The notes below the pieces were generated by a model. That model was not told the DNA's origin and ran no database searches. It worked only from the letters and a program-made list of their open reading frames with translations. This document shows positions 31,291 through 57,894 of a DNA stretch of 64,000 bases, one piece after another (position 1 is the stretch's first letter; the number at the start of each line of letters is the position of its first letter). The translations under genes and the position numbers were made by a program. Source of the stretch: Raja brachyura (taxonomy: Eukaryota); assembly GCA_963514005.1 (NCBI GenBank), contig OY740789.1, forward strand, positions 24,676,001-24,740,000, read 5' to 3'.

Positions 31291-32366
31291 ATTGAACAAT
31301 TTCAAATGTCAGTGTTTAGGATCAGGGCTACATTTTTAGCACATGAGAGCAGGGCCGGCCTTAGGAAGTGCCGGGCCCAATTGGGAACAATTTTGGTGAG
31401 GCCCAGGTTCCTAGCCATGGTCTGTAGAATCATAGAAATACAAATAAAGTATATTTTAGACTTTATACCTCTATGGTAGAATGGAAAGTAATCACAATGT
31501 GCGCTTAAAAAGTGCCTACGGACCAAACAGATCTGAGCTACATTTTAATATAAAATTGCATACATGTAAGCCTACAAGTAACAAACAAAATGTGTGGATC
31601 ACCTCTGAAAAGTGCATAGTTACAATACCACTTGTTTTAGTGACTGTGGAATGAAAACAAAAATGTAATTAACTAGAGCCTGGAAAACCAATAACTATTG
31701 GGGAAAAACCAGTCCAGGCATTACATTTTGGGCTTCAGCTCCATCCTACCCTTTGGGCTTCTACCCCATCTAAACCTAGTTGTGTGTGTGTGTCTCTTAG
31801 TTGTATGTGTCACTGTCAGTTGTCTGTGCATTATGTGTGTGTGGGAGGGAAGGAGAGGAGAGAGGGAGGGAGAGAAGGGAGGGAGGGAAGTAGAGAAAGA
31901 AGGGAGGGAGGGAAGGCGAGAAGGGGAAAGAGAGAGGAAGGATGGAGGGAAGGAGAGAAGGGAGGGTGGGAGTGGGCCGGCAGCAGAAGCGGATGCGGGA
32001 GTCCGGGCGGACGGGTGTGAGCTGAGGCCGAGGTTTGTAAACATTGCTCCAACCCCCGGCCCAGCCCTCAATGTATTGTTCACTGCGTCTTCCCGGGGAG
32101 AGAGGGGAGGGGGAGCCGGGACTGTGTGCGTGAAGCACGGCAACTGGAGGGACGGGAGCGCTGCCCCGGGACCTTGTGGGCACCTCACCCTTCACCATTC
32201 CCCCTCCCCGTCTACCCCTTTCTTCCTCTTCTGCTCTCTTTCCCCCCTCCACCCAGGGTAGATCTACCCGAGCCGAGAGCAGATTACTCCAAAGCAAAGC
32301 TGAGAGATTAAAGGATAGACAAAAATGCAGCGGGTCGGGCGGCATTTCTAGACAAAAGGAATAGGT

Positions 32367-32394
32367 GACATTTCGGGTCGAGACCCGTCTTCAG
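32367..32394 (-). ncRNA. Minimal hammerhead ribozyme core (Penelope type)
   Basis: Minus strand CTGAAGA-cgggtctcgaccc-GAAA-TG-TC with perfect stem II. Confidence 0.55.
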
Positions 32395-33286
32395 ACTGAG
32401 TCAGGGGAAAGAGGAATTCAAACCGTCCCCCCTCCCCCCCCCCCTTCCCCCCCTTCCCCCTCCGACACCGGCACGGAGCGATCGCCAGCCCCACTTTTTT
32501 TTGGTAAACATCTATTTCCTTCACGTTTTTTAAAACATTTCCCCCTTACCATTTCCATAATTTTTCGATAGCTGCCATGACCCGTTTGATGTCATCCTGC
32601 GCCCTGCTCCTCATAGCTGCTCCTGGTCTCGGCCCGCACCGATCTGCTGTGTGTTTGTGAGTGTGTTTGTTTGGCGGAGTCTGAGGGGAGAAGCGCCGGC
32701 ATCAAGATCGAGCGAACGCACGGACAGATGGACGAAAGCAACGATCATAGAGCGGAATAGGTGACCAAAGATCTTTGTAGGTGACATTTTGGGTCGAGAC
32801 CCTTCTTCAGACTGAGTCAGGGGAAAGAGGAGCAAGAGATATAGAGGGTACTAAGGACAAACGAATGGAAGATATGCCTATATCTCCCGTTTCCCTTTCC
32901 CTTGACTGTCAGACTCAAGAAGGGTCTCGACCAGAAATGTCCACCTATGCCGCTCTATGATCGTTGCTTTAGTCCGTCTCTCCGCGCATTCACTCGCTCT
33001 TGGTGCCGGCGCTTCTCCCCTCATGGCAGCTATCGAAAAAGTCGACCCGAAATATTACCTAGTCCTCTCCAGAGATGCTGCCTGATCCGTTGATTTGCTC
33101 CAGCCTTTTGTGTCTGTCTTCTGTTTAAACCAGCATCTGCAGTTCCTCCCTGTACAAGGAATGTGCCGTTTAAAAAGAAAATTAAATTTAAAAAAAAAAC
33201 ATTTAAAAACACATAGACTGTTCCCACACTACGCTGCGAGAGGCATAACTGAAGTCGGGTCCGGGTTACTGAAATGGTGGAAGTTA

Positions 33287-33762
33287 AGGGCCTGTCCCAC
33301 CAGCATGCAAATCTATGCGATGAGCGCGACCTAACGTGGTTGCTTGAGCCGTCCGGCGTCGCGTGGCCGGTCCCACTTCGATCGCCGGAGCCGTGCGGAA
33401 TTGTGTGGAGTTCGTCCCGACATTGCGCGGGGCTCCGAAAAACTGACTATGTTCAAAAATTCCGCGCGGCAACGGCTTGTCGGCTCGCAGTCACCTCGAC
33501 GCATTACACACCGCCTCGACGTCGAGCCTCCGTGACCCTCTCTGTTGGTGCCTCCATGACCCTCTGTGTGTGTGGCTCCGTGGCCCTCTCTGTGTGTGCC
33601 TCTGTGCGCCCCTCTCTGTCCTGGCGAACGTACCTTTAGACTTCGCTCCAAGTTCGCCTCACTTTTCGCCGTGTTGCGCCACTCACCCGACTTCCGCGTG
33701 GCCCCTGCTGCCGGTTTGGTCGCACTTGCCGCATGCAGGCGCTTGCTGGTGGGAACGGCCCT
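33287..33762. mobile_element. PIF/Harbinger-like MITE nested in the hAT element
   Basis: tta|agggcctgtcccaccagca ... tgctggtgggaacggccct|gta. Confidence 0.7.
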
Positions 33763-34282
33763 GTACAGGGATCACCCGACCTCCGCGCGGCCCCCGCTTC
33801 TAGTTTGATCGCGCTCGTCGCATGGAGTCGAATGCTGGTAGAACAGGCCCTTTACTACCCGTCAGTCCATTGTATTTCGCAGGAGTGGACCATCTTGCAC
33901 TCTATAAGATCTTTGCTCCAATTGATCCTAGAGCGGAGCTCTCGGATCTTTTGATTACTCTAGCGCGGGGCTCCCTTAGCTGCGGGGCCCCAATTGGGAG
34001 CAATCGGTCCAATCGGCTTAAGGCCGGCCCTGCATGAGAGGACCGTTCAGTAGTTCACCAGTGGAATATCATCCATCATTATACCACTGGTTCCCAATGT
34101 GGATACTGCATCAGAATTACAAGAGTGATCCATCACCAGCAATGCCCTATCCTGATCAGTACATTTGACATAGAAATAGATGTAGGCACAATTTACTCTG
34201 GGTTAAATCAATTATTAATTGCATAGATATCAGCGCAATGTGATCAAATTCCTAAGAAAGAGTGGTAACTGCCAATGTTATG

Positions 34283-46325: not shown

Positions 46326-48699
46326 CATTCTTATTCAGCTGGGCCCTCCCAAAAGGCCACGGCTGTGGAAGCAGCTGTGAATTGTTCCAAAAGTGAGCTT
46401 TGCCTTTAGTGTTGCAAATGAACAGATGATGATTCAGTTAGGGGGCTCTATTCTATCTCTTAAAGCAACATGGTCGAAACATATCCTAGATTGCAAAATC
46501 ATTCCGATAACCTAAAATTGTGGGGGGAAAACAAACTGCTAGAAATTTGGGTGCGAGTGAGGGAGTGCTGTAGGGGAAAACCCTCAGCACATATTTTGCC
46601 ACATATTTTGGCCGATTGAAACACATAATGAATCATTATAATCACACGCGCAAAGATGCAATGAAAACTTTGTTCAAATCGTACCATACATTAGTACAAT
46701 CAAACCATACACTAGTGCAACAGGTAGTGCAAAAGAGAAAGGAAACAGTAAATAATTTAGTATCATTTGTTACAGAGAAAGTGCAGATTTAAAAAAATGT
46801 ATGGGCCGCAGCAATGTAGATTGGTAGATCGGGAACCTATCCTTGCACCATTATTTTCACTGTATAGGAAAGAGTCATTGTAATTCTGCTATAAAATCAT
46901 CTCATACAGAGTACACATAAAATTGTGCACTTTGAACAATGGATACCATGCATTTCGTTTGTTATCTGGACCCAAAGGGGTTTGTCCTGTTGAGCAATAT
47001 TGTGGAGACAAGACTCTTTATTGAGGTCTTCCCTGAAGCACCCCTCTGCTGGTATAAATATTAAAAATTCTAATCTTCTTCAAAGCATGGATGGCCTCAA
47101 ATCTTCATGGCAACAAGGCTATAATTGGCTGGTGCCGAATCAATGGCTCTGCACAAGGTTCTCATCTCACTCCAGTCAATTTCACCATAATCACTGTTTA
47201 CCAGAATACTTTAATTTTTATTTCAATTTAATGATATAGTTAAAATAAAAACATAACTATTTTAAGAGTTATATTTGAGACAAGAGCTAAATGTTTCATG
47301 TGATGCAAGTCTAATTATTCCAGACATGTAAATAATCCAGGGTTACACAAAAAGCTGGAGAAACTCAGCGGGTGCAGCAGCATCTAAGGAGCAAAGGAGA
47401 TGGGCGACGTTTCGGGTCGAGACCATCTCTTTGTACATTGGGGCATAGGTCTATGTACCTATGTATACGCCACAGACACCCAGCCAAGGAGGTTTGTGCT
47501 GTTTTATTCGATCATTCATTACATCATCTCCAAGAATCATCAACAGCTTCCCAACAACTTACTGGACTGGACTTGGCAATTCTGAGTAGGATGCATACAA
47601 GTCATGTGTCATCTTTTATCCTGAACTGTGGAAGGAAATGTATGTGGCCTGGGGAATGCAGGTAGTCGTGAATCACCAATTCAACTTATTTTTAACCCAG
47701 TCCTTTGTAAAATATCTTGTTTGAGCAAATATACAACTATCAAATGAAATAGAGCAGTTGGTAATGCTATATGTTGACAACACAATTAATTAATAATGAG
47801 AAATGGCCAACAAGTAATTCCAAGAAAACAAATTTCTAAATAACTTTCCTGCAGATATCCAAGTTTTATTTCATGACGTGCCTGGGTTGCGTCTGGATTG
47901 CTTGCTAAAATGTTAATTATCCCAACATCAAGTCTCCCACTTTCAGGTCCAAAATATTTGTACAATGAGGGGTAGCCAACCTTCTCCTGGAAGGTGGAAT
48001 GTCAAATTGTATATTTAATAATACTGGCACATTTCAACTTAGCTATATATTTTTTAACTCAATAGGTCAGACAGCTTCTGTGGAGGGAAATGGACTGACA
48101 ATATTATGGCTCATATTTCATGTGGACCCAAAACCCTGACCATTCTTTTTCCTCTGCTGATGCTGCCTAGCCCGTCGACTTCCTCCAGCATCTCATTTTA
48201 TACACCAGATTCCAACATCTGCATTCTCGTCTTTCCATTAGCCAACAGCATCACAGCAATGGCCTCTGCCGCAGAAAGTTCAGATATGCTTCCCCAGCTC
48301 CAAAACTCCCTGCAATCTGAATCCCCCTCACAGCTCCCATCCTCCCGCACAAAGACTCACAACATCACTGGCAGAAATTCACATCTCCCCAGTCTGGTGG
48401 TTATGGTTTGAATCTACCCAGTGCGTAGACTACTTGTTTGGCTGGAAGTTCAGTCTTTCAGTCAAGCAGGTTGTTGGGAAGGAAGTCTTTCAGGGAATAC
48501 TTAGGGCTACCAACTCTCACGCTTTGAGAATAACGCATTTTGACAAATTCTCATGCCCTCATGCTCTGTTGTGAGAAATTCTGTGATCAACGAAAATTTC
48601 AAAACTCATAAACTGCATGACTCTGGTAGATTTCAATCACACCGCTCGCCTGATTTCACAACTCTCCAGAAATGTTTTCCATGCAGTTTATGCAATTTA

Positions 48700-50297
48700 A
48701 CAGAAGGAAACAAAACGGGCAATAAGTATGAAGGGAAGTTGGCCAGGAATATAAAGAAGGACAGTAAAAGCCTCTTTAGATATGTTAAGGGAAAAAGAGT
48801 AGCAAACTCAAATGTGGGTCCCTTGAAGATTGACATGGGTGAAATTATTATGGGCAACAAGGAAATGGCAGAAGAGTTGAATAGGTACTTCGGATCTGTC
48901 TTCACTAAGGAAGGCACAAACAATCTCCCAGATGTACTGGAGGACAGAGAATCTAAGGGGGTAGAGAAACTGAAAGAAATTTTCATTAGGCGAGAAATAT
49001 TGGGTAGGCTAATGGGACTGAAGGATGTTAAATCCCCTGGGCCTGATGGTCTCAGGGAGGTGGCTCTACAAATAGTGGACGCATTGGTGATCATTTTCCA
49101 ATGTTCAATAGATTCAGGATCAGTTCCTGTGGATTGGAGGATAGCTAATGTTATCTTACTTTTCAAGAAAGGAGCGATAGAGAACACGGGGAATTACAGA
49201 CCAGTTAGTCTGACTTCGGTGGTGGGAAAGATGCTGGAGTCAATTATTAAAGAGGTAATAATGGTGCATTTGGATAACAGTAAAAGGATTAGTCCAAGTC
49301 AACATGAATTTATGAAAGGGAAATCATGCTTGACTAATCCTCTGGAATTTTTTGAGGATGTGACAAGTTAAATGGATGAAGGGGTGCCAGTGGATGTAGT
49401 GTATCTAGACTTTCAGAAAGTCTTTGATAAGGTCCCTCACGGGAGACTGGTGACTAAAATTAGAGCACATGTTATTGGGGGTAGGGTGTTGACATGGCTA
49501 GAAAATCAGTTGGCAGAGCGGAAGCAAAGAGTAGGAGAGAACGGGTCCTTTTCAGAATGACAGGCAGTGGCGAGTGGAGTGCCGCAAGGCTCGGTGTTGG
49601 GGCCGCAACTGTTTACTATATATATTAATGATTTGGAAGAGGGATTTGGAACAACTAGCAAATTTGCGGATGACACAAAGCTGGGTGGCAGTGTGAACTG
49701 TAAAGAGGATGTTAGAAGATTGCAGGGTTACCTGGACAGGTAGAGTGAGTGGGCAGATGCGTGGCAGATACAGTCTGAGGAAAGACATTCTTGCCATAGA
49801 GGGGGTACAGAGAAGATTCACCAGACTGGGATGTCAGGACTTTCATATGAGGAAAGACTGGATCGACTCGGCTTGTACTCGCTGGAATTTAGAAGATTGA
49901 GAGGGGATCTTATAGAAACTTACAAAATTCTTAAGGGGTTGGACAAGCTAGATGCTGGAAGATTGTTCCCGATGTTGGGGAAGTCCAGAACAAGGGGTCA
50001 CAGTCTAAGGATAAGGGGGAATTCCTTTAGGACCGAGATGAGGAAAACATTCTTTACACAGGGAGTGGTGAGTCTCTGGAATTCTCTGCCACAGAAGGTA
50101 GTTGAGGCCAGTTCATTGGCTATATTTAAGAGGGCGTTAGATGTGGCACTTGTGGCTAAAGGGATCAGAGGGTATGGAGAGAAGGCAGGTACGGGATACT
50201 GAGTTGGATGATCAGCCATGATCACATTGAATGGCGGTGCAGGCTCGAAGGACCGAATGGCCCCCCCGCACCTATTTTCTATGTTTCTATGTTTCTG
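48700..50297 (+). mobile_element. CR1 ORF2 long fragment with internal deletion and 3' tail
   Basis: GNYRPVSLTSVVGKMLES, DFQKVFDKVPH, FADDTKL, tail (CTATGTTT)n. Confidence 0.93.
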
Positions 50298-50494
50298 TGC
50301 ATGGGCCGCGGGTGTTGGAGACCCGGGGCTGATGGAGGGATGGAAGCAGAACCTGCGGCGGGGATAAATGCGGGGAGCAGGCTGGCGAGTGTTTGAGGGG
50401 CTGACGAGTCGCTTGCTGCAGCTCCGGCCATGGAGTGGCCCCAATGCAAGGGTCACGGGCTGTCGGAAGCATCGGAAGAGTTGTGCCGCTACCG

Positions 50495-51272
50495 TGGGAG
50501 GGGGAGAGAGAGAAGGGAAGGAGACAGGGAGACAGGGGGGAGAGAGAGGGGGTGAGAGAGGGGAGAGAATGGGGAGAGAGGAGGGAGATGGGGAAGAGAG
50601 AGTGGAGAGGGGGGGGAAGAGAGTTTGGGGAAAGAGAGGGGAGAGAAAGTTAGGGGAGAGAAAGTTAGGGGAGAGAAAGTTAGGGGAGAGGGGGAGAGGG
50701 GAAGGTGGAGAGAAAGGAGAGAGGAGGCGTGAGAGAGGGGGAGAGTGAGGTGAGGGGAGAGAGGGGAAAGAGAGAGGGAGAGGGAGAAAGAATGGAGAGA
50801 CGGGAAGAGAGAAGATAGGGAAGGGGAGAGAGAGGGGGGGAGACAGGGGAGGGAGAGAGGGGGTGAGAGGAGAGAGAGAGAGAGACCAGAAAGAGAGGGG
50901 AGAGAGAGAGATGGAGGGGAGAGAGGGGGTGAGAGGAGANNNNNNNNNNNNNNNNNNNNNNNNNNNNNNNNNNNNNNNNNNNNNNNNNNNNNNNNNNNNN
51001 NNNNNNNNNNNNNNNNNNNNNNNNNNNNNNNNNNNNNNNNNNNNNNNNNNNNNNNNNNNNNNNNNNNNNNNNNNNNNNNNNNNNNNNNNNNNNNNNNNNN
51101 NNNNNNNNNNNNNNNNNNNNNNNNNNNNNNNNNNNGGGTGGAGAGGGGGGGTGGAGAGGGGGGGGGAGAGGGGGGGGGAGAGGGGGGTGGAGAGGGGGGT
51201 GGAGAGGGGGGGGGGAGAGGGGGGGGGAGAGGGGGGGGGAGAGAGGGGGAGAGAGGGGGGGAGAGAGGAGGA
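50495..51272. repeat. Polypurine (GA-rich) low-complexity tract containing a 196-N assembly gap (50940-51135)
   Basis: Directly visible. Confidence 0.97.
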
Positions 51273-51771: not shown

Positions 51772-52103
51772 GTCCCAATGTTGGGGGAGTTGAGAACCAG
51801 GGGTCACAGTTTAAGAATAAAGGGTAGGCCAGTTCGGACTGAGATGAAGACAAACTTTCTTCACCCAGAGAGTTGTGAATCTGTGGAATTCTCTGCCACA
51901 GAAGGCAGTGCAGGCCAATTCACTGGATGTTTTTAAGGGAGAGTTACATTTAGTTCTTGGGGCTAATGAAATCAAGGGATATGGGGAAAAAACCCGGAAA
52001 GAGGTACTGATTTTAGATGAATAGCCATGATCATATTGAATGGCAGTGCTGGCTCGAAGGGCCGAATGGCCTATTCCTGCACCTATTTTCTATGTTACTA
52101 TGC
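51772..52103 (+). mobile_element. CR1 3' fragment
   Basis: RGHSLRI.G..., tail ttctatgttactatg. Confidence 0.88.
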
Positions 52104-52274
52104 TTGAGTATATGGCAATAAAACTCAATCATGATTTTGAAGCATTCACTATTGTCATTTGACAGGTTGAATAGAAATGTCCCCAATATCGTTGTTTTAT
52201 TAATAGTGAGATTAAACGAGAACTTACCTGTTCGAAGTTTGATCTTTATTTTATGAGGAGTTACGATGAGGGAT

Positions 52275-52311
52275 TACGTGAAGAAGACCCCGCCTGGCGC
52301 TGGAACGGCAT
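52275..52311. repeat. DIRS right ITR core (37 bp)
   Basis: tacgtgaagaagaccccgcctggcgctggaacggcat is the exact reverse complement of 57049-57085. Confidence 0.95.
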
Positions 52312-52428
52312 ACTTCAAAGCAGCGGCATGAAAAACACAGAACCAATAGCCGGAGTAAAATAGTAAGGCTCAAAATAGACTAGAACTACCAGATGATCAT
52401 TTATATTATGAGGGTTGGGAGTGGAGGG

Positions 52429-52541
52429 CACGTAATCCCTCATCGTAACTCCTCATAAAATAAAGATCAAACTTCGAACAGGTAAGTTCTCGTTTAATCT
52501 CACTATTTTACTTCGGAGTCACGTGAGTGACTACGTGAAGA
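52429..52541. repeat. DIRS internal complementary region (ICR)
   Basis: 52429-52507 is the exact reverse complement of 52202-52280 (79 bp); 52505-52541 is the reverse complement of 57076-57112. Confidence 0.95.
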
Positions 52542-52793
52542 TTTTAAAGCCCTGTGTTTTCCATGTCGTAAACTCATTTCATACGACTCTCTGTTTGGTC
52601 AAAATAGTAGTGAGTAAAAAGTATTTTAACACATTGTTATAATTTATGTAATAAGTCCTTTAATTATAAAAATAACAACTTTTTAAAATAATAACCCCTC
52701 TATTGCAGGGGAAAATTACAAAATAATTGATAAATGATGTCAATGGTAACATAAATCGATAAAATAAATCGATAATATAAACAAAGCAAGCAT

Positions 52794-53760
52794 TTAAAGA
52801 GAACCCAGTACTGCGTGTCCAAATCCTGGCACCGTGACAACAGGTTTATTGTAGAACTTTGAAAAAGTTTCTTCTCGAGACCACCCTGCGGCCTCTAAAA
52901 TTTGATCGAGTGGTACGTCCTGTACCTTCGCCGCGGACGTAGCTGCCGCCCTAATGGAGTGAGATTTAAACACATCAGTGTCTATTCCTGCTAGACCCAA
53001 AACCTGTTTTAACCATCTAGAAATGGTTTGAACTGAAACTTTTGTAGGTGGTTTTTTGTGTGTTATCAATAACGCTTTCTCAGAACCCCTGAGATTTTTG
53101 GTTACCTCCATGTATTGAGTTAAATGCTTAACTACACACAATGTTTCATCAATAGGATATGCTTTAAACATTACCTTCATTCCAGTTCTCCCTGGTCTGC
53201 TTTGTTTGATCAAGTCATAAACATAAAACACAATGTTATCTGAAGTTACATGCATGCAATCCAACCTTAACAATTGCAAAGTCTGTACTCTTTGAGCTGA
53301 TACCAATGCCATTAACATAACCACCTTGAATGTTAAGTTCTGCAAAGACATTGAATTAATTGGAGTCCATTGTTTAAGTAAAGTGAGAACAATGCTAACA
53401 TCCCAAATTTCTGTATATCTGGGCTTGGGAGGATTTTTATTAAAAATACCTTTCATGAATCGGGATACTAATGGGTGAGACCCAACTGAATCCCGATCCG
53501 AAATTTGTCCTAAATAGGATGACAATGCACTCCGAGCACAATTAATGGCACTATAACTCAAATGCTCATCAAAGTGTAACCCAGCAAGGAACTCCAATAC
53601 ATTTGAAATGTTTGCAGAATGATTAGATATCTTTGACTGTGTACAAAAGGCTTCCCATTTTCTTATATGCGACATATATTGTTTATTTAGTGCTAGTCCT
53701 CCAAGCTGCATCTATAACATCCATGGTCCTGTCCGACAGTTCAAACTCTTGCAATGGTCT
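52794..53760 (-). CDS. DIRS tyrosine recombinase (N-terminus frameshifted near 53685)
   Basis: Catalytic signature R (SAQRVQTL), HxxR (HSIR), W (AAGWS), Y (FSKFY); upstream frame DAAWRTSTK joins KQYMSH after a 1-nt insertion. Confidence 0.92.
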
Positions 53761-53762
53761 GG

Positions 53763-55160
53763 TCAGAACCTGCAGATTAACAAATTCATATGATTATGCA
53801 ATGGATGAATTTCTTTTGTTACTGGTTGTGTCAACAGATTGACGCAACTGGGAATTACCATACATGGTTCAATAATCATTTTAAGCATCAATGGGAACCA
53901 TGACTGTGTGGGCCAATTTGGCACCACCAAAATGCCTTTGGCAGCGTCTTGCGCTATTTTCTTGAGACATTGCCCAATGAGACAGAATGGGGGAAAAGCA
54001 TAAAAGAACATATTCCCCCAGTGTAGCGAGAAAGCATCCACCGCTACTGCCCCTGGATCGTGTTCCCAAGACACGTATTTCGGCAATTGGTGATTCAATC
54101 TAGATGCAAACAGATCAATGTCCGGTACTCCATACCGACTGACAATATTTTTGAAAATTTGTGGATTTAACATCCATTCTGTATTGTCTTTAAATATTCG
54201 TGATCTTTTGTCTGCCACAACATTGTCTCTCCCCGGGAGATAAATAGCTGAAAGCCAAATATTTTTTGCAATACACCACTGCCATATCTGGTTTACCAGA
54301 TGATCACATGAAATTGATCTGACACCACCCATGTGATTGATATATGCCACAGCTGTGGTATTATCTATTTGTACTTGGACATGCAAATCCTTTAATGAAG
54401 AGCAATAAGCTTTTAATCCATAAAATGCTCCCAGTAGCTCCAAATAATTAATACCATATGTTTGGAGCAATAAATCCTCTTGGACAGCCCATCTGCCTCC
54501 ACAGCTGGTATCATTATCCGTAGCACCCCATCCGAGAGAACTTGCGTCAGTTTGTAAAAACACGACTGGCTGATGAACCAAAATGTTCTTAGCAGCTTGT
54601 GGAACATTCTCAATCCACCAATGTAATTCCGATAAAGCTTCCTTAGGCAATTGCATTGGCCTATCAAAATGGCCTGCTCGCTGAACTAGCGCTTTAGTTT
54701 TTTCCCTTTGAAGATTTTGGTAATGTAAACGACCAAATTCTACTGCTGGAAATGCTGCTACCAATTTACCAATACCCTTGGCAACCTCTCGGATGGAGGG
54801 ATAAGGTTTGTTAATCAGGTTTTGACACACATTTGTCAAATCCAACTCCTTATCCATTGGTAAAGTTACCAACATGGTGACTGAATTAATCACAAACCCC
54901 AGATATTCAATGGTTTGGGATGGCTGTAACTTAGACTTTGTTGGATGGATCAGAAACCCCAACTTCTCAAACAAGCTAATAGTTGCTGAGACTGATTTCC
55001 CAGCTGATTCCTGATTAGCATTGACAATTAAAATGTCATCTAGATAAGCCATAACAATGTGTTTTTGTGCCCTTAGCAGTGCAAGTGCTGGCTTTAACAA
55101 TTTAGTGAACAATCTAGGTGCTGAACTTAATCCATTAGGCAAAGCTTTGTATTGCCACAA
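53763..55160 (-). CDS. DIRS RT C-terminal part + RNase H + DNA N6-adenine methyltransferase-like domain (465-aa open stretch)
   Basis: ALPNGLSSAPRLFTK, AYLDD (RT); TDASSLGWGA, INYLEL, DNTTAVAYIN, NVVAD (RNase H); IDLFAS and YAFPPF (Dam-like MT motifs). Confidence 0.93.
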   Translation of the reverse strand: MWQYKALPNGLSSAPRLFTKLLKPALALLRAQKHIVMAYLDDILIVNANQESAGKSVSATISLFEKLGFLIHPTKSKLQPSQTIEYLGFVINSVTMLVTLPMDKELDLTNVCQNLINKPYPSIREVAKGIGKLVAAFPAVEFGRLHYQNLQREKTKALVQRAGHFDRPMQLPKEALSELHWWIENVPQAAKNILVHQPVVFLQTDASSLGWGATDNDTSCGGRWAVQEDLLLQTYGINYLELLGAFYGLKAYCSSLKDLHVQVQIDNTTAVAYINHMGGVRSISCDHLVNQIWQWCIAKNIWLSAIYLPGRDNVVADKRSRIFKDNTEWMLNPQIFKNIVSRYGVPDIDLFASRLNHQLPKYVSWEHDPGAVAVDAFSLHWGNMFFYAFPPFCLIGQCLKKIAQDAAKGILVVPNWPTQSWFPLMLKMIIEPCMVIPSCVNLLTQPVTKEIHPLHNHMNLLICRF

Positions 55161-55700
55161 GTCCCATCCATTTAAACTTTAAATACCTGCGAAAATCATG
55201 ATGAATTGGGACCGAATAATATGCATCCTTCAAGTCTATTGTAGCCATATAACAACCTGTTGATACCAACTGCATTGCAGTGTAGAAAGTGTCCATTTTA
55301 AAATGTTTATACTGGACAAATGTATTCAAAAATGTGAGATCTAAAATGATCCTACAACCCCCATCTTTCTTTGGTCTGGGGAAAATGTTTGATATAATTT
55401 GTTGTGGATCCTCTCCTGTTTTCTCGATAACTCCTTTTTTACTCAAATTCTTAATCTCTTTGTCCATTTGATTAATCTCAAACTCTGAGAACCTCAAAGG
55501 ATGACTAGGCTCATTCTGTCCCAATGGAACCATACCTTCCACAAAATCAATGGTAGATCCTAGTACAGTGTCTAATACCACACGATCAACTGTAATATTG
55601 TCCCATTCCTTATAAAACATTTGGAGTCTACCACCAATCTGTGGCTCATCCCAGCATTCCTCTTTAACAGGATAATGTTTATGTACCTCTCCCACTGGAC
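55135..55700 (-). pseudogene. DIRS reverse transcriptase, N-terminal part
   Basis: GGRLQMFYKEW, SNIFPRPKKDGGCRIILDL, HFKMDT, IDLKDAYYSVPI; frameshift at ~55160 joins it to the next ORF. Confidence 0.92.
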
Positions 55701-55799
55701 GAAATGATCTTCTTTTCCCAATGAATGGGTGTACATTCGGCTGTGTTGGCTGGAAATTTTTCCTTATCATACTCCTGCCTCGGCTTGTACCAGCTCCAA

Positions 55800-56891
55800 A
55801 ATCAAATCTCTTCCTCGAATAGCCAGTCCATCTCTGGCCAAAGTTGAAGGGTTTCATACGACCAAAAGTTTTTGCTTCTTCATCTATTTCTTTAATTTGT
55901 TTAGACAAATCCTCTCCGAACAAAAACCCAGGAGTTTGAACATTGCTTGGTTTACACAATCCTGCAAATCTTGGATGTAACAGAGGTCGAATGGCAATCT
56001 CATGCAATTAATCTCAAAAAATGAGTTGCAAAATAAGGCCAACATATGTTTCTGCACTTTGGTCATTCCACAACCTTCCACTTGTCTGCCAAGTGCAGTA
56101 ATGCCAGCTGAAATCAGCTTGAGGACTCTTTGAAATCAAATTTCCTGCGCCCGCATAATTGATGACATTGGCGCCCAAACAACTGGATTCACCGTAGGTA
56201 CCTTCAATGAGGCACAATTGATAGGTGTTTTATACATTTCTGCTGTCTCAACCATAACAGCATCTTGAAGCGGGTGAGAGACCAAATAATTAATATTGGC
56301 CGCCAGGTTTTCTTCCATGGCCTCACCGCCTCCTCCAGGTATAGCAAAATCTTGTGCCACATCAGGCACACCTGGATCCATATATTTGTATTGTGGTATG
56401 TACTACGGACCACAATCACCACTTTCAGGGTCTGTCTCATACAGCCCTGGTACTCCTGAAACTTGTTCAAAGGAGACTTCCTCCAGTCCATACCCAGGCA
56501 CTGGGGTTTCAAATTCCCAATTCGAATTGGCACCATATTCACGATATGGAACCCCCTCAGGGGCTGCCTGGGAATATTCTGGGTTCTTAGACCCTTGGTT
56601 GATAATAGTCTGGAGCATTTTCTCCATTTGGTCCATTCTGAGCCATAAGGCTTTCCTTTCTGGACCTTCAGAATCAGAGTCCTCAGAAACCCCAGGCCTT
56701 TCAGCTTTTCTTTTACTTTTTTTAGGCACTGGGATTTCCTCTACAGTTTCTGTTTGTGGAGCAATCAAAGCCTCACTAACGGGTGTTTCAACGGCCACCG
56801 GTATCGGAACCAGCTCCGCAATAATCTGCTGTCCCGACTCTTCTGAACCCCGGGACGCACGTTTTACCCGCTGTTTTTTGGCCTTCTCCAT
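55800..56891 (-). pseudogene. DIRS gag-like ORF1, disrupted
   Basis: ORFs 56403-56891 and 56136-56381 are in frame across a TAG (GP*YIPQ); a TGA follows (QEI*FQRVL); a frameshift near 56000 leads to IRPLLHPRFAGLC...LFGEDLSK, typical of DIRS gag C-terminal regions. Confidence 0.8.
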
Positions 56892-57048
56892 TTTGTTTTT
56901 TACTAACTCCTCCTGGTTTTCCCACCAGGCTACGGAGTTCTGAAACCTCGCCCTAAATTTTGTAAAACGTTCTTACCTGCGGGCCGGTTCCGTACCGCTG
57001 TGTGGAGCTGCGCTCTGCAGCTCTTTCGCTGCCGACAGCGACGACGTA

Positions 57049-57085
57049 ATGCCGTTCCAGCGCCAGGCGGGGTCTTCTTCACGTA
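57049..57085. repeat. DIRS left ITR core (37 bp)
   Basis: atgccgttccagcgccaggcggggtcttcttcacgta, inverted copy of 52275-52311. Confidence 0.95.
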
Positions 57086-57894
57086 GTCACTCACGTGACT
57101 CCGAAGTAAAATTGAACACATAGATGAACATCCTCAAGGAGTGTAATCAGATGGAAACTGATTCAGATGCGATATTTAAGAGCTTGTTCAAAGAAGGGGA
57201 ATATTTTAAAGGAGTGACAGAGATACTTGCAGGGGAATGTGTGAGAAGATTATTATATGTCTTTAGTTTTAGCTTGAACCAGGACAATTGAATATTCAAA
57301 GTTTAATATAATAATTGTACTGATACTGACCCCAACCAACCACATGATGAATATCATCCATTCCAGAGGTTTGACTTTTATGATGCCATTTAAACTTCAC
57401 TTGGATTTCAATCACTTCAATTTAAAAGTAATTGGGAATGGGGTGCATTGGAACAAAAATTTGCCCTCGGTACATATTAACTGTAATATAATAATGTATG
57501 CATGTTGGTAGGTGCAATCAAAACAAAGATCTTTTTATCCTTGTTGATAAAATATACCACAGAAAATATTATGTACTCTCAAGATCACAGTTAATAGAAT
57601 AATATTGCTTAAATATAGTTATTGGACTTTGCATTTCGGAAAAGTCCCAGCTGAGAGGAAGACAGCAAAATACTGAAAATATTGGGAGTGAAAATGACTT
57701 CAGGACTGTTTGTTAGGAAAATGAAAGAAATGGTAACAGAATACATACAGCTGAGTGAGTATAATTTTATGGATGATAAATTGTGTTCCACCAATTGATG
57801 ACTTCTTTAACAAAGTAACCAGCATGTTAGATAACAAGGAAGCCAATGGGTGTAGCACATTTTGTTATATTTCATCCCCTTTTACTAATCCCGT

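Follow-up and report, generated by a model that had tools for sequence, protein, structure and literature searches.

Here, we describe a DIRS1-superfamily retrotransposon of 4911 bp on the minus strand (52202..57112) of a 64,000-nucleotide stretch of the Raja brachyura assembly GCA_963514005.1 (contig OY740789.1, forward-strand positions 24,676,001 to 24,740,000; hereafter the window), and we compare its ends with those of other elements. The element is, with near certainty, a recently inserted, coding-defective copy in an elasmobranch host, and as such extends a known superfamily by one elasmobranch member whose ends are of the invertebrate type. Of more consequence is the resulting comparison, which slightly favours an integration step in which a single strand is exchanged after the first base of the terminal triplet (N|TT) and, more tentatively, suggests that DIRS1 elements may integrate a folded single-stranded junction of their complementary DNA (cDNA). 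The question of how DIRS recombinases integrate on three bases of homology had not yet been tested (PMC7192593), and the conserved, covarying junction geometry together with the N|TT pattern makes DIRS integration directly testable, including in the existing Dictyostelium assay.

The DIRS1 identity proposed in the initial annotation is borne out by the repeats, the protein domains and the relatives of pol and of the tyrosine recombinase (YR). With ATT at both termini (element strand), the element carries inverted terminal repeats (ITRs) composed of a conserved part, perfect over 37 bp by exact matching (right 52275..52311, left 57049..57085, minus strand), and a divergent part of 27 nt (right 52248..52274, left 57086..57112, minus strand), the left one starting with the ATT triplet. 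Located 3' of the YR, an internal complementary region (ICR) is complementary to both ends: its hairpin-bearing right part (52429..52507, minus strand, 79 nt) is the reverse complement of the right end at 52202-52280, and its left part (52505..52541, minus strand, 37 nt) that of the left end at 57076-57112, both at 100% by exact matching. The two parts share exactly three bases, the circular-junction triplet at 52505..52507 (ATT on the plus strand, AAT on the element strand), which confirms that 52499-52516 spells the junction of both ends with an ATT overlap. These repeat matches are far above chance (blastn E 1e-35 to 1e-12), and a 3-nt overlap by itself is a common word, found at about 2.7% of flank positions. 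Among junction duplications of 2-20 nt, only the 3-nt ATT qualified and no longer target site duplication (TSD) was found at either genomic junction, just as annotated. The split direct repeats of PAT-like and Ngaro elements were absent, as no terminal direct repeat was found and the repeats are inverted, and no second copy was found within the window.

The sizes of the parts needed partial revision. The 37-bp ITR stands, while the 27-nt left and 73-nt right extensions originally assigned do not: the left 27 nt align to 52248-52274, of which they are a partial complement, with 21 identities in 28 gapped columns (14/27 ungapped), and are therefore a divergent ITR with no left extension in the terms of Piednoel 2011, so that the right extension (rE) is 46 nt (52202..52247, minus strand) rather than 73. 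The rE consists of a 4-nt spacer, a stem-bulge-stem-loop (52211-52243), a 6-nt spacer and the terminal ATT. ITRs with conserved and divergent parts (37 + 27 nt) plus a 46-nt extension, an ICR whose halves overlap by 3 bp, and NTT at both termini without a TSD all correspond to a DIRS1-like organisation, as does the order of gag, reverse transcriptase-RNase H-methyltransferase (RT-RH-MT) and YR in the same orientation.

The coding regions, all on the minus strand, comprise a gag-like region (55650..56891, first ATG at 56891), pol (53763..55641) with RT (YLDD, 55046), RH (TDAS, 54551) and methyltransferase-like motifs (DLFAS, 54116; AFPP, 53999), and the YR (52794..53775), with its catalytic R-K-H-R-W-Y codons at 53291, 53207, 52961, 52952, 52883 and 52853. 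Pfam matches were obtained to RVT_1, weakly to Dam (E 0.006) and to Phage_integrase; there was none in the gag-like region, which was assigned by position and three unnamed relatives only. The catalytic motifs of pol and YR are intact, and the R-K-H-R-W-Y set is invariant or nearly so across 84 aligned sequences. As annotated, the perfect terminal repeats stand beside open reading frames (ORFs) broken by two in-frame stops (56403-56405 and 56136-56138) and three frameshifts. The gag frameshift near 56000 coincides with a frame change in two of three gag relatives (tblastn), the third also splitting; near 55161 in the RT, 108/108 pol relatives of at least 600 aa are split across two frames, and near 53685 in the YR, 37 of 88 relatives have a second-frame match upstream. 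The first stop is called a lesion from frame continuity only, because it lies upstream of the coverage of all fetched relatives. Further, the 3' part of gag runs into the RT in frame both in the window copy and in the relative P0318, which may represent a gag-pol fusion. An intact, active element whose frameshifts are assembly errors is improbable: the three perfect repeat pairs, the unnamed relative P0316 with 96.5% identity over 86 gag residues and a gap of undetermined bases in the window (50940-51135) agree with such a reading, but the two stops are substitutions rather than indels, the three closest gag relatives likewise end in differing frames, as decaying copies would, and, with repeats re-templated in each cycle, a defective template mobilised in trans would also be perfect-ended.

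The proposed chondrichthyan host is likewise supported, as skate proteins are the closest relatives that carry names. The best named pol match is Amblyraja radiata XP_032904474.1 (LOC116990664; 71% over 367 aa), and the best named YR match is also a skate protein (57%); the skate matches, from Amblyraja radiata LOC116990664 and Leucoraja erinacea LOC129708389, are annotated as uncharacterized proteins and represent families different from the window element. A quick 65-row tree, made up of database matches only and without a bony-fish reference, places the window pol as sister to the Amblyraja protein (SH-aLRT 95). Named matches following the skates are echinoderm, hemichordate and coral proteins (approximately 48-53%), most matches are unnamed, and among ten pol clusters names were available for the skate protein and one coral cluster only. 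Horizontal transfer from invertebrates was considered and is not claimed, given the mostly unnamed matches, the missing bony-fish reference and the quick tree. The window family is already present in public data, because P0316 is 89-96% identical to its gag. No paper describing such a family in cartilaginous fish was found in a literature search to which neither Repbase and Dfam nor the papers of Goodwin and Poulter were accessible.

The mechanism read from the junction in the initial annotation matches the standard model and, being already stated in PMC3266345, is no discovery, nor can one copy prove it. According to Piednoel 2011, both ICR halves include a 3-bp circular junction on which they overlap and which recombines with an identical genomic triplet in a TSD-free manner, and ATT is the most frequent triplet (at both ends in 10/28 elements; PMC3266345), with TTT given for the ends of Xenopus DIRS (Gazolla 2021, PMC9210276). 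The circular-DNA step, presented as established, is a model: DIRS-1 cDNA is single-stranded and mostly linear, and inverse PCR gave no circle junction (Malicki et al. 2020, PMC7192593). Strict identity of the triplet is not required either, since 8/26 published elements mismatch at one triplet position. In the same study, the DIRS-1 ICR acts after first-strand synthesis, which its deletion does not stop, and YR specificity was not investigated (PMC7192593).

In its dimensions the window element resembles LgDIRS1 and LgDIRS3 of Lottia and AcaDIRS1 and AcaDIRS2 of Aplysia (PMC3266345), which share ATT at the ends and junction, the lack of a TSD and of a long ORF overlap, a divergent ITR of about 30 nt, a conserved ITR of 31-36 nt, an rE of 48-49 nt and an ICR of about 42 + 86 nt. 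The part sizes of LgDIRS3 (30/36/49 nt, ICR 42-86) are near-equal to those of the window (27/37/46, ICR 37-79), the likeness seen here being one of dimensions and triplets, and the window host being a vertebrate. Teleost, frog and lizard elements differ in having conserved ITRs of 102-148 nt, an rE of 26-34 nt and GTT, TTT or CTT starts (PMC3266345). Dictyostelium DIRS-1 shares the ITR, ICR and rE logic, YR integration and the MT domain, but has a 304-bp ITR, a TTA triplet and no spacer between ICR and ITR (PMC7192593).

A genome-contig scan gave 16 DIRS loci (L001-L016) with 38-47% pol identity to the window and a YR in all. These are near-complete eukaryotic DIRS elements on short contigs within GTDB bacterial genome bins, probably eukaryotic host DNA caught in the bins. 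Junction sequence is visible in 14/16 loci, all except L009 and L013; the set used for statistics comprises 13 junctions, namely the window and 12 loci, the junctions of L007 and L008 having been noticed late. For L005 and L016, the ICR was assigned from its position and motif alone. In L003 (1-81), L002 (4613-4673) and L006 (4735-4804), some end sequences are unexpectedly oriented or only about 90% identical, and probably reflect collapsed or chimeric assemblies.

Imperfect ends bear on the position of the crossover. Using the 26 of 28 published elements with a 3-nt junction (PMC3266345; two left out), we found one mismatched position in each of eight, at base 2 of the right end in six, at base 3 of the right end in one and at base 1 of the left end in one, and in all eight the mismatched base is one that a cut after base 1 (N|TT) would derive from the target. 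The triplets of L004 also fit such a cut, and an apparent left match in L005 was dropped as the ICR itself. The element's own spacer is present at 5/5 recovered right ends and whole in 0/6 left flanks. Two exchanges across an unmatched spacer would be expected to leave it on either side, so this distribution speaks for one strand, and one-sided mismatches together with a one-sided spacer are what a single strand exchange followed by replication would leave.

The junctions also share a predicted hairpin geometry. On the cDNA-type strand, a divergent-ITR arm with AAT at its end is separated by 6 nt from a 7-nt arm, after which come a bulge and a short stem-loop, in most cases with ACTTACC; the partner arm then leads, across 4 nt, to ATT and the opposite ITR arm. 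In the right ICR of the window these are the 6-nt spacer (52504-52499), arm (52498-52492), ACTTACC (52487-52481), arm (52472-52466), 4-nt spacer (52465-52462) and partner triplet (52461-52459). In the predicted folds, AAT is paired with its partner triplet in 12/13 junctions (L006 misfolds), and the 6/4 spacing recurs in 12/13, with 4/4 in L004 and the left gap of L002 read by hand; in L010, whose stem is unrelated in sequence, the spacing is retained. RNAalifold on 12 junctions returned two helices with both-side changes in 9/15 pairs, which none of 500 shuffles reached; one helix corresponds to the divergent ITR, already known, and the other, the rE stem, has both-side changes in 5/8 pairs. 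Bulges of 2-4 nt are predicted on both arms above the second stem, with no fixed single extrahelical bases. In all 13 junctions, the predicted stability favours the cDNA-type strand over its complement (mean -2.35 kcal/mol). The crossover is displaced by about 22 nt from the midpoint of the junction palindrome, and the two arms flanking the 6-nt spacer make up an imperfect dyad (4-5/7 in 9/13 junctions). An Rfam search with E up to 1 gave no match.

Such a geometry recalls the attC sites of integrons, in which only AAC/GTT is conserved, the bottom strand is cleaved between A and C and a 5-6 nt spacer parts two boxes (PMC2727003, PMC5027507), the bottom strand is more stable by a difference of 2.12 (PMC5027507), recombination is resolved by replication (PMC8946536) and genomic attG sites target GWT with single cleavage (bioRxiv 2022.09.11.507474). 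As in attC, the DIRS junction has a paired conserved triplet beside a short central spacer, followed by a second box or stem with a bulge and a variable loop. The crossover is off-centre in the paired triplet (AAC/GTT in attC, AAT/ATT in DIRS, teleost DIRS starting with GTT), the non-coding strand is the more stable one, the site is complete only in the circle, and the targets are GWT for attG and, as proposed here, N-W-T for DIRS. Unlike attC, the DIRS junction has a 6/4 spacer that pairs in part in the predicted folds, a 3-4 nt bulge instead of a single extrahelical G or T, and a perfect complement, the ICR, on the same molecule. Because the host is eukaryotic and the modelled YR is nearer to Cre than to the integrase IntI, the junction is not a member of the integron system; it belongs to a eukaryotic retroelement with a Cre-like enzyme. 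The AlphaFold model of the YR (predicted local distance difference test, pLDDT, 92.7) aligns to Cre with Z 19.6 and a root-mean-square deviation (rmsd) of 4.2-5.6 over 264-274 residues, and to the integron integrase 2a3v with Z 14.9 and rmsd 4.6 over 244, so that IntI as the nearest fold was dropped, Cre ranking first; the ESM Atlas returned generic eukaryotic integrase clusters only. No literature likening DIRS to integron or attC single-strand recombination was found, subscription reviews lying outside the search, and the available portions of PMC6681497, PMC13465315, PMC3212892, PMC5941688 and PMC6817897 contain no such comparison.

Based on these observations, integration could proceed as follows. 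The family would make single-stranded antisense cDNA, and its missing ends would be rebuilt on the ICR, joining the right end to the left across one triplet, both steps being established for DIRS-1 and extended here to the window element. The rebuilt junction would provide the core for the tyrosine recombinase (one arm with AAT at its end, the 6-nt spacer and one arm with ATT at its start), on which the Cre-like recombinase may exchange the cDNA strand only, between triplet bases 1 and 2 (A|TT on the element strand), with a double-stranded target that would need little beyond N-W-T and host replication or repair resolving the junction. The core may be presented either as a folded, attC-like hairpin or as a junction strand paired with the ICR. 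We consider the one-strand N|TT step marginally probable. The fuller proposal, in which DIRS1 elements integrate a folded single-stranded cDNA junction as a eukaryotic counterpart of the attC hairpin, with one N|TT cut, N-W-T duplex targets and replicative resolution, is a speculative analogy that we consider rather unlikely. If true, the folded-junction route would explain why the cDNA is single-stranded and no double-stranded circle is seen, why the homology is limited to 3 nt, why end mismatches are one-sided and why the rE geometry is fixed, and single-strand tyrosine recombination would reach beyond bacteria to a eukaryotic retroelement.

Several points weigh against these proposals. The perfect junction:ICR duplex is predicted at -141.8 kcal/mol compared with -24.7 for the hairpin, and the folded version would thus need a protein or kinetics that keep the ICR apart; the one-strand model itself survives this objection, since in that duplex, too, a single true junction strand is present at the core. 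Presentation of a core with one true junction strand is a CTX-phage-like route. The predicted folds often pair part of the 6/4 spacer, unlike the unpaired 5-6 nt central spacer of attC, L010 lacks the arm dyad (0/7), and the modelled YR is, as described above, nearer to Cre than to IntI. With respect to the statistics, the covariation was counted on the same alignment from which the structure was derived, the sequences are related, 9/16 loci derive from two related bins and the ICR limits were set by hand. The left end of L012 (AGT, with ATT at the junction) does not fit N|TT, the published triplets were hand-curated from single copies, and published left ends were probably defined by their match to the ICR, so that left-side mismatches would be hidden; the ends of the window family are known from one copy, without an empty allele.

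Two other explanations compete with these proposals. In the classical model of Cappello, Goodwin and Poulter, a single-stranded circle is made double-stranded and undergoes a two-strand crossover at a triplet shared with an identical genomic triplet. This is the published model (PMC3266345, PMC7192593), the triplets are identical at both ends in 18/26 published elements as well as in the window, L001 and L011, the YR is Cre-like and the imperfect arm dyad could be used in duplex DNA. Against it stand the unamplified circle junction and single-stranded cDNA (PMC7192593), the one-sided mismatches and the distance of the crossover from the palindrome centre, and we consider it rather unlikely. 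Moreover, judging from Cre, Flp and Xer in general, two exchanges across a 6-8 bp spacer require more than three bases in common. Alternatively, the rE/ICR hairpin could work in the RNA or in reverse transcription, as a self-priming 3' fold-back, by binding RT or Gag, or as a U1/splice-donor signal; it would then not be the substrate of recombination, and its attC likeness would be coincidental. The fold and the strand bias apply equally to RNA, because the transcript ICR and the cDNA junction are identical in sequence; ACTTACC is kept in 9/13 ICRs beyond any need for pairing, the ICR duplex outcompetes the hairpin in DNA, and Poulter and Goodwin have described a DIRS-1 3' hairpin that could prime RT (cited in PMC7192593). 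However, deletion of the ICR does not block first-strand synthesis (PMC7192593), and an RNA role leaves the paired crossover triplet and its fixed 6/4 distance from the stem unexplained; we regard it as a serious possibility, short of probable.

Additional features were observed around the junction. On the element strand, two CAGGTAAG splice-donor-like words occur at 52222-52230, in the rE loop, and at 56972-56979, 130 nt inside the left end, and YR relatives start at about 53775, the site of a possible splice acceptor. ACTTACC, the complement of the splice-donor-like word, matches the 5' end of the U1 small nuclear RNA. In most loci, a CTTTAAA-like motif is located upstream of the ICR (window 52542-52549), and often of the right ITR too, and C-rich CCCWCCC tracts follow the ICR (window 52410-52428).

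The spacer between the ICR and the right ITR (52324..52428) repeats, in the window, the ICR together with its upstream flank in inverted and degenerate form, with a score of 66.5 that was reached by 0/5000 shuffles (maximum 44.5) and 0/2084 window controls and fold z-scores of -6.8 (RNA) and -5.9 (DNA), making the ICR one arm of a long imperfect fold-back. The same spacer resembles the ICRs of L003 (score 44) and L015 (41.5) and may thus be what remains of an older terminus or junction copy. As a general feature the fold-back was rejected: among the 10 usable sequences (3/13 were left out as too short) it is strong in the window only, the other nine giving a Fisher p of 0.35. Across 27 published elements, the relation of spacer length to right ICR length was not convincing either (Spearman 0.31, p 0.11; within 10 nt in 10/27, permutation p 0.053). 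A short closing stem around the ICR, with an upstream arm at 52552..52568 and its partner at 52324-52340 in the window, is more widespread (Fisher p 8e-6 for nine loci without the window; individually strong in two).

Outside the element, a 3' tail of the long interspersed nuclear element (LINE) type is located at 51800-52100, at a distance of 100 bp from the right junction, and 48544-49371 contains a LINE ORF2-like frame, both of which we take to be CR1/L2-like. The 196-base gap at 50940-51135 falls within a G/A-rich low-complexity tract (50000-51270), approximately 1 kb from the element, and a G+C-rich stretch (0.55, compared with a background of 0.40) is found at 32000-34000.

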